Shown piece by piece: positions 1 through 12,000 of a stretch of DNA of 13,230 bases (positions are counted from its first letter, which is position 1; every line of letters begins with the position of its first letter). A program made the position numbers. Source of the stretch: a virus (Duplodnaviria > Heunggongvirae > Uroviricota > Caudoviricetes); the IMG/VR virus record IMGVR_UViG_2563366990_000013; one strand, given 5' to 3'.

Positions 1-3000
1 CCCCTGGATTCCCTGTATTTTCTCCCGGACAACAATAAACAGCGGGCACAATCATCATACTAAAACGAACTTTGACTGATAAAGATAAAATCACCATTAA
101 CCAATTGATTTAAATACATAAACCCACAGGCATTTAACAAGTTCTCAGTTATCAGAAAGTTCGAATTAAGGAAGTAAACTCTCTTCCGTTTTCACCTCAT
201 TATCAGAGCGGCCAGCACACAGAATGTCACCACACCCCCCAGCCATACAAACAGCATGAAGCACATCGCACCCGCTGTGTATTTCCGCTTTCCGCATCTG
301 ATTTTTTTCTGTTCCATTCTCACTGCCACCGTTCCACTCTCATTACCCGACTCACGAATATGCATTCCGGCTACGCACGTCCAACCAGGTGCTTCACACT
401 CCTGTACTTAAGACCATTTTTACCAAGTCCCATATACAGAAAGGTGTTCACCGTCTTCGTGTTTATCCCCATTTCACGGGCAAGATGGCAGGGCTTTGAC
501 TCCCGGTACACGTATCCAAACATCACCACCATCTCGGACATCGTCAGAGGTCGCGCATACGTATTATGTACCCACTCACCATTCCGGATTTTCCTGTACG
601 TCTCCAGGCGCCCCGTAACATCTTCCGCATCAATCTGAAGATAACGGCGTCCCTGAAACATGCAGCACATCAGCCTGCCAAGGAGGGCATCACAGATTAT
701 CACCCATGACTCATCATGTGCCGGTACACTCTTCCTGTTCTCTGGTGTAAAAAACTCCCTCGCCAGTATTATCCTGTACCCCTCAAGCATCTGCTGCAGG
801 CCATACTCCAGATAACGGTTGCGGGTCGCCAGAATCACTTTCATCGCTGTCACCTGTTTCATGCTCACATGAGAAAAAACGGCAGGCAAAACTCCACGCC
901 TGCCGTCATGCTTCATGTCACTGTCAGCAATTAAAACTCAAAGTTCACACCTACGTTGTAGGACACATCGCCATCACTCGCTGCCACACCTGCTTTCGCT
1001 GCTGTCTGCTCATTGAAACGGTAACCAACACCCACGGCAACAGCCTGTTTATCACTGTACCCCCCCAGGGCAGCAGTGGCGTTGAATTTCCCCACACTGT
1101 ACGGCTGGAAAAGCCCCGCCAGCGCTGCACTCTGTGCTGCTGCACGCTTCATCTCTTCGTGATTCTCACGAATTTGACGCTGCTGGCTGTTCAGGCGTGC
1201 ATTATGTTCCTGCAACTGGCGAGTATTGGACTGAATAGCCTGTGTATTTTTAGTAACCCGGCGGTCAACGCTACCAACAGTAGCATCAATACGGTCTGTT
1301 CTGCCGGACAGAGCAACGAGACCGTCATTAACAGCAATCGTTTTTGTAGCGCCATCAGCGCTGGTCAAGGTTCCGTCCGCATTCACACCAACGGTGGTTC
1401 GGGAATCAATTTTATTCGTATTCGCAGCCGTTGCTGCATCAATGATATCTGTGCGGGATGAAAGCTCAGACAGTCCTTTCTTCTGGATCGCCAGCCCTTC
1501 TTTCTGTTCTTCCACATCTTTCGCTATAGTGACAACGCCGTCATTGATACGTAACGGCGTTACAATATCTGTCTCATTCAGAGTTAGCTTACCGTTTTTA
1601 TCTAGGCCAATTGCGCTATTTGCAGCCTCTGTAGCCAGATAACTCTGCAAAGACACGCGTTCTTTAATACTCTCTGCACTAGTTGCCACTCGCCCATATT
1701 CATCCAGACCAACATTAGTTTCCATTTCAGAGATCGCAGCAATTCTGCCAAAAAGATTCCGAATATCAGCATCAGATACAAGCTCTGTTTTAGTACCCTC
1801 GTTCTTTCCAAGAGAACCTTCTCTTTTCTGCTTGACCAGTGAATTCATTAGGTCATGAAACTCCCGGTCATACACACGATATGTACTAGTGCCATCCTTG
1901 GTAGTAACTTCTACAGTCCCATCTCTATTAATTTTTGATAATCCTTGTACAATACTTCCACTTTCAATCCCTTCAGCACCGGCAGGTACTGTTTTCCATT
2001 TAACATAAGCGGTGTCAGAATCACTATTATAAACAATGGTGTAAGTAGTTCCGTGTCTACCGACAATATCCAAGGCAGTGTAGCTATATTCACTTGCACT
2101 TGTAAAAGAACTAACACTCAACAGACCTACAACCAGAGAAGATGACAGAAGTGTCTTTGTAAATTTTTTACTCATTATGGATATCCTGTTAAATTATCTG
2201 TATACAAATCAGCCACTACACCTCATACTCATAAATAAATATGATTAATTGCGGCTTTATTCAGGATATTCCGAAAATAACCCCAAAATATTAATTTAAT
2301 GTTTTAGGATTTGTCTTACATTATTCTTGGTGTAGTCACTCAGAACCACGACTACACCACCGGAACAGGCATCAGAAAAAACTTACTCTCATCAGGCATT
2401 CTGTTTCACATCTGCTTACACTGTAATTTCTGATCAATATCACAACATTATCCGAATTTAACTGTTCAGTTCATCTACAATATTTCCCTGCGTGACTTTA
2501 TATCAGCCCCGCACTTCCGTACGGAGCATGTTCTTTACTCCACTCCCACTTTTTTGTTGTACTCGCGGTTAAACCGATCCACGGCAATTTTCATATCCCG
2601 CTCTACCGATTTCACCATCGCCGACTGTTGCGCCAGACTGAGAGTACTGTCGGCGTAAATGGCATCACGCTGTTTACGCAAATCCTTCAGTCTCTTCCGG
2701 GTATCCTGCATAAGCCCGTTCATCGACAATTTTCCGTTGTTCTCGTCAATGAACGCCGTTCTTTCTGCACCGGTCAGACTCTTCAGCTCTGCGTGATACT
2801 GCGCGACCTCCGTCATCCGGTCGTACATCTTCTGCTGGTCAGCATACGGCATCACCTCACCTGAAATTTTCCCCAGGAAGGGCACCTGCTGTTCCGGTAT
2901 ATCAATACCATTCAGCGATTTCACCGCCGCATCCGTGGTTTTGGAAATGAAGCGCCCTGTACCACCAGAGATATAGTCAATCCAGTATTTCAGTGATTCC

Positions 3001-9000: not shown

Positions 9001-12000
9001 TTCACTACGGACGGTTTCAGGCCGGTAGCGGCGGCATTACGGAAAACATCACTCCCCATGGCGCTTTTCTCATCCGTGAAATAACGGTTGTCCGGGCGCA
9101 CCTTTTCAATGCGTTCCGCTGGTCTGGACGCACCATTCCCGTTAATTTCAATGCGGACTTCATTCGGGTCCCGGAACCGCACCGTCGGGTAAATGCTCCC
9201 GTTACCATCCTCCGCATTTTCAGGCTGTGACTGTGCTTCCGGCGTCACTTCCTGTTGTGGGCGAATGACTTCTCGTATTGCCTGAAACTGTTGTTCTTCA
9301 GTCTCGGTGCGCTCCTCTTTCTGGCTGAGTCTGCGGTATTCCTCAAGCAGTTCAGAACGCGGCTTCGCCTTCAGCTCATTCATCACAGCCTGTCGCTTCG
9401 CCTGTTCGTCCAGTTCATTCAACAACTGGCTGGCAGCTTCCCGGCGATGAGCTGCGGATGCGTCACCCTCTGTTGCCATATCCGCATCAGCATACTGTTC
9501 CAGAAGCTGCTCGCGATTCATGCCCTGCATGGATTCACGATGCTGTGCCACCGGATCAACCGGTTCGGGTTGCGGGGCTGCGTCGTCCTGCTGCACGGTT
9601 TCAGCATCACGCATGGCTGCTTCTTCTGCGGCCTGACGTCTGCCACGATATCCGGCAACCGCACCGAATGGAGCCCCCATCGCAGCACCGAAAACAGTGC
9701 CTTCAATCCCTGCGTCAGTCACCCCCTCCCATGGCGATACATCCATTCCGGCGGTCTCACGCAATGCCATGTTTTCCTGATAGCGCGAATAGGCGTTCTG
9801 TGCCCCGTTAATTACGCCCTGTTCCGTGGCATTTCTGACAATGCCGCTTTTAACGGTCTTCGCTGTGCCTCGTGTCACCAGATTAAACAGTTGTGCGTCA
9901 CCCAGTTTTGCCGCCATGGCATTCACAGCCAGCAATTCAGGATCGGTTGCCAGCTGCGCGCGCACCTCATCGGCAACACGCTCTTTTGCCAGATCCATTT
10001 TCTGGCGATCAGTAAGCTGTGCATGCTGCGGGTCGGCGTCAATGGACAAAAACGTCTGCTGAAATTTCGGTGACTGCGCCAGCTCAGAGTAATCCGCATT
10101 AAGAACAGCATCTGCTGCCGCCATTGCACTCTGCCCCTGTGCACTGGCTGTGGAATGGGTGATCAGGCCCGCCTGGAATAAATCCGGCATTTTTTTATCG
10201 ACAGCTTCTGCTGCCAGTGCCGTGGCTCTTTCCGGCTGCATCCCTGCCGCGATGTATTTTTTCTCCAGCCCGGCGGTCAGCATTTTTCGCAGTGTGACAT
10301 CACCCACCTTTCTAGCCACACCGCCAGCAACCATATCAGGTACAAGCGCACCAATCAGGTTTACACCCTTCGCCAGCAAGACCGCAGAATCATCATAGCC
10401 TTCTGTTATCGGCGTATTCAGCGCACGAACAGCACCTGGCGACATCTGTTCTGTCAGCCATTCATCCGAGGCTTTGGCACCATCACTGACAGCCTTACCG
10501 GTTGCTTTCAGACCTTTACCGACAGTATCAGTGACCACGTTTTTTCCATCAGGCAGGGTATCGATGACCTCATCAGCCCCCCTGCTGCCACCGGCAAAAA
10601 TATCCTGAACAGTTGCGACACCCGGTAGCCCCATACGGCTGAACTCATTTAAAATACGCGCCCCTGTTTTTACCGGGCTCTGAATCATCGCATCACCGAG
10701 TCCACGGGCCATTTCCCCTGTTCCCCGGACGGACTGGGCAACACCTTTACCCATTGTTGGCAATACATCACCGAGGCTGAACGATGTGCTGTGATCAATG
10801 GCATTCTGCGGGTTGCTGAAAAAATCCTGCCAGTAATTTTCTCCCGGCTGCTTAATGTTCAGGCTGCTGCGGTTCTGGTTACCCAATTGCGCTTCAGGGC
10901 GCTGCTCATCTGAAAAAGCCATACAGACTCCAGTAAAAAAAAGCCCGACACGATGGTCGGGCGTAAGTGAACGATATTAACGGGGAGCGCGTTACTGCCG
11001 CATATCTTTACTTCATCCAGCCTTTGATCTTCTCGGCAGCTGCGGAAGCGCTATAATCCAGCGCCTTTTCATGCTCTGCCTTTTTATCCCGGAGGTGATT
11101 CTGGTAATAAATTTCCACCTCCTTTTCACGACCAGGTTCCAGCAAAGCAGGCGCATTGGCGGCAGCCTCTTTTACAAACTCCTGTTTAACCGGATCGCCC
11201 GCCGCCCACGTCTGCCACTTCTGTAAAAGCTGTTGCGTTTTCCGTTGCTGAACTTTCTGTTGATGCGGCTGTAAACCATTCGCAGCATAAAATTCATCCA
11301 CCTCAGCCTGAGCATCACGGCCATTCTTGATCGCATCCGCCGCTACGTTGCTGGCTACTTCCTGAAGTTTCGCCAGAGAAAGTCCCTGCTGCTTCGGCAT
11401 AAAATAACCATAATTTTTCGATATCTCTGCAAATTTGCTGCGATCCCTGACCTGAGCGATAGCCTTATCAACGGGTATCGCCAGCACGGTTTGATCATCA
11501 GGGTGCGCACTGCCGTATTCTGTTACAGGTTTATGCGCGGTGGAGCCATCGCTGTATGTGAGATCAAGGCCAATAAGTACGTACCCTTCCTGCTGCGCCG
11601 GTACGATACTGCCAATCCTGGCCTCTTTTATCGTTTTCTCCCCGGTTGAATCAGGCATGCCAATACGCTGTTGTAGTTCCGGGGCAAACACGCCGGAAAG
11701 CACATCGAGATTTTCCGGGGTATTCAGCGAAGCAATCGCCCTGTCCGGCTTATCATCAAAGATTTTCTGCAGGTTGTTCACGGCCTGACCCGCTTTCGCA
11801 GCATAGCCTACCGTTGACATCATCTTAAGCGGATTGGCGTCCGATAATTTACCGAACAGATGAGAAGCCGCATCATGGTCACCCGCATCAATCGCTTTTC
11901 CCAGCGCCGCCATCACAGGCTGATCGCGCGCCAGCATATCGTTATACTCAAGCCGTCGCTGGTTGTATTTCTGCAACTGGAGTCGTTGCTGTTCCATCCC

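Follow-up and report, generated by a model that had tools for sequence, protein, structure and literature searches.

Shiga toxin (Stx)-converting short-tailed phages of the 933W/Sp5/phi24B type encode a very large late protein, known as ORF80 (ECs1242) in Sp5 phage, orf71 in VT2-Sakai phage, 'gp47' in phi24B phage (GenBank vb_24B_48), and the giant late protein in 933W phage. In Sp5 phage, Mondal et al. 2016 deleted ORF80 (2,793 amino acids, a.a.) and ORF79, the 420-a.a. gene upstream of it, each on its own, and both deletions gave particles with packaged DNA and normal-looking heads that had lost infectivity (PMC5155283). For phi24B phage, a 2026 preprint reported gp47 in purified virions and noted LPD5, LPD1, LPD38, and MuF-C domains within it (doi 10.64898/2026.04.10.717836). 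The LPD domain definitions, and the class of polyvalent proteins, come from Iyer et al. 2017 (PMC5512222). Here, we examined a 13,230-nucleotide (nt) stretch of DNA (IMG/VR virus record IMGVR_UViG_2563366990_000013; referred to as the window), in which a single open reading frame (ORF) of 2,795 codons (2535..10922, on the minus strand, as are all features given below with window coordinates) encodes an ortholog of these proteins, hereafter the giant protein. The prophage is a short-tailed one of the 933W/Sp5/phi24B type, and we consider it likely that its giant protein is located inside the virion and is also a phage-type polyvalent protein, which would be ejected into the host.

Over its full length, the giant protein shares 93% identity with VT2-Sakai orf71 and 92% with the phi24B ortholog, and it matches PHROG 616 end to end. 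Its gene closes the structural part of a podophage late operon that also comprises the terminase, portal, N4-gp56-type capsid, and tail fiber genes. About 190 phage records match the giant protein, nearly all from Stx-converting short-tailed phages, and the gene lies in the structural operon throughout. That the ortholog is essential for the infectivity of Sp5 phage suggests that the protein is a structural or ejection component and not an accessory factor. Packaging into the virion has been demonstrated by proteomics for the 92%-identical phi24B ortholog, which yielded 10,962 spectra, a count exceeded only by that of the capsid protein, with a peak in the top gel slices and a tail into the lower ones (doi 10.64898/2026.04.10.717836). 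The same protein was not visible in the cryo-electron microscopy (cryo-EM) map, and the phi24B tail (portal, two adaptor rings, nozzle, fibers, and needle) was modelled without it. Given that gp47 is abundant yet without density, the authors inferred an internal location and proposed an encapsidated ejection protein (doi 10.64898/2026.04.10.717836). The virions also held the 421-a.a., 260-a.a., and 161-a.a. products of upstream genes (doi 10.64898/2026.04.10.717836).

The initial annotation of this ORF, made from the sequence alone, had proposed a virion effector of the polyvalent class, with a putative role in countering host defenses. The class assignment agrees with our results, homologs do lie beside portal, capsid, and terminase genes in the late operon of Stx podophages, and the virion part of the proposal is supported by the presence of the phi24B ortholog in purified virions without map density. 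This reading was right but not new, as the literature and the RefSeq naming of the protein (WP_001561692.1, 'LPD38 domain-containing protein') already hold it; the family, its virion location, and the ejection-protein proposal have all been published. What the present analysis adds are refinements: the delineation of the first zincin as one domain, the assignment of MuF_C as a predicted RNase, the constant terminal modules, the cassette allele, a conserved six-gene block, and a C-terminal module without a solved relative.

The ORF, reported as uninterrupted and here placed on the minus strand, is real. It runs from ATG to stop and encodes a product of ~307 kDa; a stop-free run of 2,795 codons has a chance of ~10^-61 at the base composition of the window, and the GC content per codon position (0.64/0.44/0.55) is typical of coding sequence. 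We noted that the records of VT2-Sakai (L001 4457..12877) and phi24B (L008 5149..13572) place the start 12–13 codons further upstream, giving 2,806–2,807 a.a., at a position inside or ahead of a hairpin that is conserved. More plausible is the ATG that follows a GGAG, the start adopted for the ORF described here and also by Mondal et al. (2,793 a.a.). The protein contains zero cysteines. No signal-like hydrophobic stretch was found at the N-terminus (the highest 10-a.a. hydropathy within the first 45 a.a. is −0.45), a motif search across all 2,795 a.a. found no GxxxxGK[ST] P-loop, and Pfam returned no TPS, RHS/YD, RTX, relaxase, tape-measure, or ATPase domain. NCBIfam likewise gave no TPS, RHS, RTX, tape-measure, or relaxase family, helicase and methyltransferase domains were without a match in both collections, and RNA polymerase domains were not found. 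The absence of a signal peptide, of ATPase or helicase motifs, and of TPS or YD/RHS hallmarks, all claimed beforehand, was thus borne out by hydropathy, motif search, and Pfam.

The polyvalent character of the giant protein follows the definition of the class, in that a single large polypeptide carries at least two domains of the class inventory (LPD5, LPD1, MuF_C, and LPD38) and its gene lies among late and packaging genes (terminase, portal, capsid, and tail fiber). All four domains score far above the Pfam cut-offs of ~27 bits: LPD5 (a.a. 1050–1199) with 154, LPD1 (a.a. 1360–1439) with 83, MuF_C (a.a. 1751–1845) with 84, and LPD38 (a.a. 2478–2683) with 168. With permissive thresholds, no further Pfam family was found, a faint Peptidase_M76 hint (E = 0.19) aside. 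LPD38 was reported by Iyer et al. in phage-type members only (PMC5512222). Structure models cover the C-terminal and central regions of the protein.

The protein begins with an N-terminal module (a.a. 1–440; 9603..10922) that has no Pfam match and contains Gly/Ala-rich, moderately hydrophobic segments at a.a. 176–207 and 404–424. This is followed by a linker (a.a. 441–910; 8193..9602), first acidic and then Pro/Gly-rich. The linker had been described as acidic, disordered, and ~470 a.a. long, and the length (470 a.a.) and charge (net −29) hold; disorder is indicated by composition only, with 8.5% Pro and a bias to disorder-promoting residues. Compared to a Salmonella homolog, the linker is poorly conserved and contains indels, with the exception of an island at a.a. 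701–800. An R-x-[GE]-LP-[AS]-P-[DE]-like motif occurs in 3–5 copies at a.a. 739–875. Next is LPD5 (7326..7775; PF18799, E = 4e-45), which Iyer et al. termed 'potentially enzymatic' (PMC5512222) and which occurs together with LPD1 in most homologs.

Both of the HExxH motifs noted in the initial annotation are present, as HEWFH at a.a. 1283 and HEIIH at a.a. 1551. The first belongs to a gluzincin metallopeptidase domain (zincin-1, a.a. 1181–1439; 6606..7382) in which it is joined to Pfam LPD1: the NCBIfam CLCA_X model spans a.a. 1181–1436 (E = 1e-43, with a score below the family cut-off), and therefore the first HExxH and LPD1 form one domain of ~250 a.a. Across 35 homologs, down to ~30% identity, H1262, H1283, E1284, H1287, D1290, and E1374 are invariant, so that the HExxH is intact and the downstream Glu is present, as in a zincin metallopeptidase (MPTase). 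The extra His at a strand end and the Asp three residues past the HExxH fit the phage-type MPTase clade of Iyer et al. (PMC5512222). The second motif marks a candidate zincin (zincin-2, a.a. ~1445–1700; 5823..6590), a putative fold assignment; in the secondary structure of the model, HEIIH lies on a predicted helix after beta-strands. This segment, to which the faint Peptidase_M76 hint belongs, is 32% identical to gp20 of a Vibrio phage over a.a. 1462–1664.

The MuF_C domain (PF18819, E = 1e-23; 5388..5672) sits within a variable cassette (a.a. ~1660–1890; 5253..5945). In the phi24B preprint, MuF-C is taken for a peptidoglycan-degrading metallopeptidase, which we consider a mislabel, given that Iyer et al. 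2017 classify MuF_C as a predicted BECR-fold RNase of the PBECR group (PMC5512222). The candidate catalytic His and Ser (an 'ASVYG' motif) are kept at the sequence level in both allele types of the cassette, and fold searches gave no BECR match. A cell-wall role for the true zincin domains is possible but unsupported. The remainder of the protein forms a C-terminal module (a.a. 1888–2795; 2538..5261), mostly alpha-helical with a small beta domain, which includes LPD38 (2874..3491) and Gly/Ala-rich hydrophobic segments at a.a. 2445–2470 and 2517–2535.

The two ends of the giant protein are shared well beyond the Stx phages. The C-terminal module (~910 a.a.) aligns end to end with the C-termini of other giant phage proteins, at 40% identity in Vibrio phage and 26–27% in Ralstonia (Gamede-type) and Burkholderia Bcep22-like phages. 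These giants are 3,130–4,667 a.a. long and are encoded by the last structural gene, preceded by a gene for a 440–530-a.a. protein that is annotated as virion-associated or structural in the Burkholderia and Ralstonia records. In Burkholderia phage JC1, the C-module homolog (gp69) and the upstream gp67 and gp68 are virion-associated by mass spectrometry, and in BcepIL02 phage, gp68 and gp69, counterparts of the upstream proteins, are annotated as virion-associated. The middles of the giants differ (SLT, methylase, helicase, and LPD3 domains, all four of which occur in BcepIL02 gp70). For the N-terminal module, a word-indexed homolog search found enterobacterial relatives only, and the wider spread appeared with an exhaustive HMMER search (N-terminal 450 a.a. 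as the query), which matched 97 cluster representatives. In 56 of the 58 matches longer than 1,500 a.a., in proteins of 2,000–5,500 a.a., the module lies inside approximately the first 450 residues; 26 of these 58 giants terminate in the C-module. Zincin-2 is the central segment most often common to giants with the N-module, with local profile matches in about 47 of the 58 by our own count. The N-module is also common to gp20 of Vibrio phage 1.205.O, and here the likeness extends to the neighborhood, with a six-gene block (the giant gene and the five genes upstream of it) colinear one-to-one with genes 15–20 of the Vibrio phage. As judged from these alignments, the N-terminal ~440 a.a. and the C-terminal ~910 a.a. 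appear to be a constant frame around a mosaic middle.

Within the Stx phages, variation is concentrated in the MuF_C cassette. The giant protein is 96–100% identical to its VT2-Sakai and PhiR12_3 counterparts almost everywhere, whereas at a.a. 1701–1850 identity drops to about 36–42% (50-a.a. windows), with the two flanking windows at 70–80%. In 187 of 188 phage records, the cassette segment is <60% identical to the one described here, the lone exception being PhiR5_2 at 83%; the allele type of the window recurs in a Salmonella homolog. So sharply bounded a difference looks like recombinational exchange within the gene. We tentatively suggest, while regarding the idea as doubtful, that the N- and C-modules plus zincin-2 may form a fixed chassis for delivery, into which Stx-type phages swap effector cassettes by recombination, with PBECR replacement reflecting diversifying selection in phage–host or prophage–prophage conflict. 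If so, the cassette allele would help determine which hosts or lysogens are open to a given Stx phage. A linked possibility is that zincin-1 frees the cargo by cleaving the linker at its repeated LP[AS]P[DE] motifs.

The genes directly upstream of the giant gene belong to the conserved block. Placed one after another where the structural module ends, they encode a 218-a.a. protein, of which only the 3′ end is present (12991..13230, frame-0 translation, cut by the window edge; the full gene is seen in the chromosome of E. coli 04-00955), a 148-a.a. protein (12542..12988, RefSeq start; PHROG 596), an 83-a.a. glycine-zipper membrane-type protein (12281..12532; PHROG 594, with Pfam Gly-zipper_YMGG below the cut-off), and a 420-a.a. 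protein (11008..12270; PHROG 601), which are homologs of Vibrio phage genes 16, 17, 18, and 19, respectively. The 420-a.a. protein is the ortholog of Sp5 ORF79 and of the phi24B 421-a.a. virion protein, to which it is 80% identical. Since the Sp5 ortholog is essential and the gene is kept beside the giant gene in the Vibrio phage, the 420-a.a. protein more probably acts within the virion or in ejection, and is a candidate mid-sized partner of the giant protein. In phi24B virions, the 421-a.a. protein gave 1,634 spectra and the counterpart of the 218-a.a. gene product 523, and the counterpart of the 148-a.a. protein was detected (doi 10.64898/2026.04.10.717836). We note that the preprint table labels the 421-a.a. 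protein 'Transcription factor?', and it was apparently dismissed as a contaminant on that annotation (doi 10.64898/2026.04.10.717836). The glycine-zipper protein carries a 'bacteriocin' label in related phages, with few spectra for its phi24B virion counterpart (doi 10.64898/2026.04.10.717836).

The initial annotation had also described four small coupled genes ending in the giant gene as the last of the operon. The upstream genes are indeed only 2–10 nt apart; however, 85 nt separate the 420-a.a. gene from the giant ORF, and an 83-a.a. ORF listed at 12975..13226 is spurious, being out of frame with the real 218-a.a. gene. The 85-nt gap holds a conserved hairpin (GCCCGAC-loop-GTCGGGC followed by a run of 8 T; 10934..10962), located 11 nt ahead of the ATG, with the GGAG ribosome-binding site downstream of it. 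Both hairpin and T-run are kept in VT2-Sakai (with one compensatory stem change) and PhiR12_3. From its sequence, this terminator-like element could restrain expression of the giant gene on transcripts without Q-antitermination. Further, while the giant gene is the last structural gene, it is not the last gene on its strand: after a 359-nt AT-rich gap follow a gene for a 414-a.a. YadA-anchor trimeric autotransporter adhesin in an Eib-like position (931..2175) and a small ORF (371..844), both prophage cargo. The chromosome of E. coli 04-00955 (human stool, Germany) matches the window with 100% identity; there, the window is the right-hand end of a prophage whose upstream genes encode the terminase, portal, N4-gp56-family capsid protein, and tail fibers. 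The prophage ends with a gene for an S6-family (SPATE) autotransporter peptidase, just outside the window (14008..18000 of the E. coli 04-00955 locus, L006), and then host rcsD. Another YadA-like gene is present upstream in the same prophage, close to lom.

Several points weigh against an internal, ejected protein. Particles of the Sp5 ORF80 deletion fail to bind tail-fiber antibody, as do those of the ORF79 mutants (PMC5155283), and this loss suits a function in attaching the tail at least as well as pure ejection, if not better. The hydrophobic segments of the giant protein are weak (hydropathy of 1.0–1.6 over 19 a.a.). Among solved ejection proteins, none is related to the C-module in structure or sequence, and its homology to the C-terminal 1,351 a.a. 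of N4 gp50 was rejected, profile comparison (hhalign) giving a probability of 3%. Searches against PDB sequences with the whole protein, with profiles of the central and C-terminal regions, and with the 420-a.a. and 148-a.a. neighbors were empty, and Foldseek against PDB with the central model gave nothing below E = 0.018. In addition, ejection, membrane insertion, proteolysis, and RNase activity are all inferred for this protein family. The deletion phenotype, DNA-filled heads that are non-infectious and without bound anti-tail-fiber antibody, supports a different role, that of a tail-assembly or tail-structural factor that is not ejected and acts in an energy-requiring step of tail formation, for which Mondal et al. 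2016 invoked a predicted AAA+ domain (COG1483; PMC5155283). Such a tail ATPase would need a Walker A motif, which the giant protein lacks, and Pfam, NCBIfam, and PHROGs contain no matching ATPase family; with neither P-loop nor ATPase match, we rejected the COG1483 assignment for Sp5 ORF80. The phi24B tail was modelled without gp47, even though gp47 ranks second among the virion proteins in spectral counts, and the loss of tail fibers could be secondary to a missing internal core. We therefore regard a purely tail-related function as unlikely.

The annotation of related proteins suggests instead an accessory DarB-like antirestriction effector, injected to shield the incoming DNA and dispensable in restriction-deficient hosts. 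The giant protein does match PHROG 10089 ('DarB-like antirestriction', E = 1e-26), and the Bcep22-like and Ralstonia proteins that share its C-module are annotated as DarB-like and have methylase and helicase domains. This explanation fails, and we hold it to be very improbable, because the PHROG match is limited to a.a. 2353–2683, which is the shared LPD38 region, because the giant protein has neither a helicase nor a methyltransferase domain (BcepIL02 gp70 has both), and because Sp5 phage needs its ortholog even when grown on E. coli K-12, unlike the case of P1 DarB. PADLOC also returned zero matches. Size alone, together with the neighboring YadA-type adhesin and S6 autotransporter genes, could bring to mind a protein with only a chance location next to the prophage: a secreted toxin or adhesin (CdiA, RTX, or RHS), a tape-measure protein, or a conjugative relaxase. 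Domain content and context exclude this with near certainty: there is no signal peptide and no family of any of these kinds (TPS, RHS, RTX, tape-measure, or relaxase), the giant gene keeps its place inside the structural operon in ~190 phage records, and the adhesin genes are set off by the AT-rich gap and are not present at this position in VT2-Sakai. Tape-measure, CdiA/RTX, or relaxase matches and a non-mobile chromosomal context, which the initial annotation had named as findings that would speak against it, were looked for and none was found.

For the internal virion protein that we favor, the following course may be envisaged. Several copies of the giant protein would be enclosed in the head with the products of the five small and medium genes just upstream. 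On release of the tail needle, these proteins, unfolded at least in part, would exit through the portal–tail channel before the DNA or along with it. Functions required of all family members may fall to the constant N- and C-modules, which may serve incorporation near the portal and could build or anchor a conduit across the envelope, with the Gly/Ala-rich hydrophobic segments (a.a. 176–207, 404–424, 2445–2470, and 2517–2535) as candidate membrane contacts. The mosaic middle would be the delivered cargo, comprising LPD5, the gluzincin peptidase, the second HExxH domain, and the predicted PBECR RNase. The substrate of the zincin or zincins would most likely be either the polyprotein, with the Pro-rich linker as a possible cleavage site, or host targets, while host or phage RNA would be attacked by the predicted RNase at an early stage of infection. 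Short-tailed Stx phages, a medically important group, carry the Shiga toxin genes among E. coli, and the giant gene makes up ~14% of their genome; an understanding of how a 307-kDa protein is stored in the head, passes a narrow tail, and acts on the infected cell would account for one essential step of Stx phage infection and could reveal limits to host range. The present finding mainly confirms a published family, with the frame-plus-cassette architecture and the swapped RNase cassette as modest, testable refinements.

Among known systems, the T7 (gp14-gp15-gp16) and P22 (gp7-gp20-gp16) ejection modules, whose internal proteins leave the head and lengthen the short tail across the envelope, were the parallel drawn initially. 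The parallel in gene order stands (148 a.a., 83-a.a. glycine zipper, 420 a.a., and 2,795 a.a. in series), and the proposed role is shared. The likeness does not extend to sequence or fold, in which no homology to a characterized ejection protein (T7 gp16, P22 gp16/gp20, or DEV gp71/gp72) was found, and the giant protein is 2–4 times larger, with enzyme-like cargo domains. The small, mid-sized, and largest order also occurs in N4, Vibrio, and Burkholderia phages. In the Schitoviridae, the ejection operon encodes a small pore protein, a periplasmic-tunnel protein of ~520 a.a., and a giant virion RNA polymerase (vRNAP) in series (gp50 with gp51-52 in N4; gp71 with gp72-73 in DEV), and in DEV phage the conserved C-terminal domain of the giant vRNAP binds the periplasmic-tunnel protein. 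By analogy, this operon appears to be the closest worked-out counterpart of the giant protein. N4 and DEV phages share the N4-gp56-type capsid in the operon and the small/medium/giant order with the giant last in the structural operon, and gp50 and gp71 are, as the giant protein probably is, encapsidated in few copies, with constant termini around a catalytic middle and an MPTase domain present. They differ in their RNA polymerase domains and in C-modules without detectable homology, which makes this an analogy and not family membership.

The 'DarB-like' giants of Bcep22, BcepIL02, JC1, and Gamede-type Ralstonia phages (~4,500–4,670 a.a.) share with the giant protein a homologous C-module of ~900 a.a. 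that includes LPD38, the same terminal position after a 510–530-a.a. virion protein, and virion association by mass spectrometry. Here, identity is 26–27% and confined to the C-module, and these giants have an N-terminal SLT lytic transglycosylase and methylase, helicase, and LPD3 middles. With the phage-type polyvalent proteins (PMC5512222), from which four of its domains were defined, the giant protein has the late-operon context, the zincin MPTase, and a predicted PBECR RNase in common. It departs from the class in lacking the common DNA-directed anti-restriction domains (SWI2/SNF2, methylase, ArdC-N, and ParB), and in that its ortholog is essential, unlike the class as framed, that of conflict effectors. 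The closest relatives are the orthologs of 933W, Sp5, and phi24B phages (PHROG 616), which have the same position, upstream genes, and Pfam domains at 92–93% a.a. identity. From the Sp5/VT2-Sakai/phi24B group, the prophage described here is set apart by a different allele of the MuF_C/PBECR cassette and by its downstream cargo, a YadA-like adhesin and an S6 peptidase.

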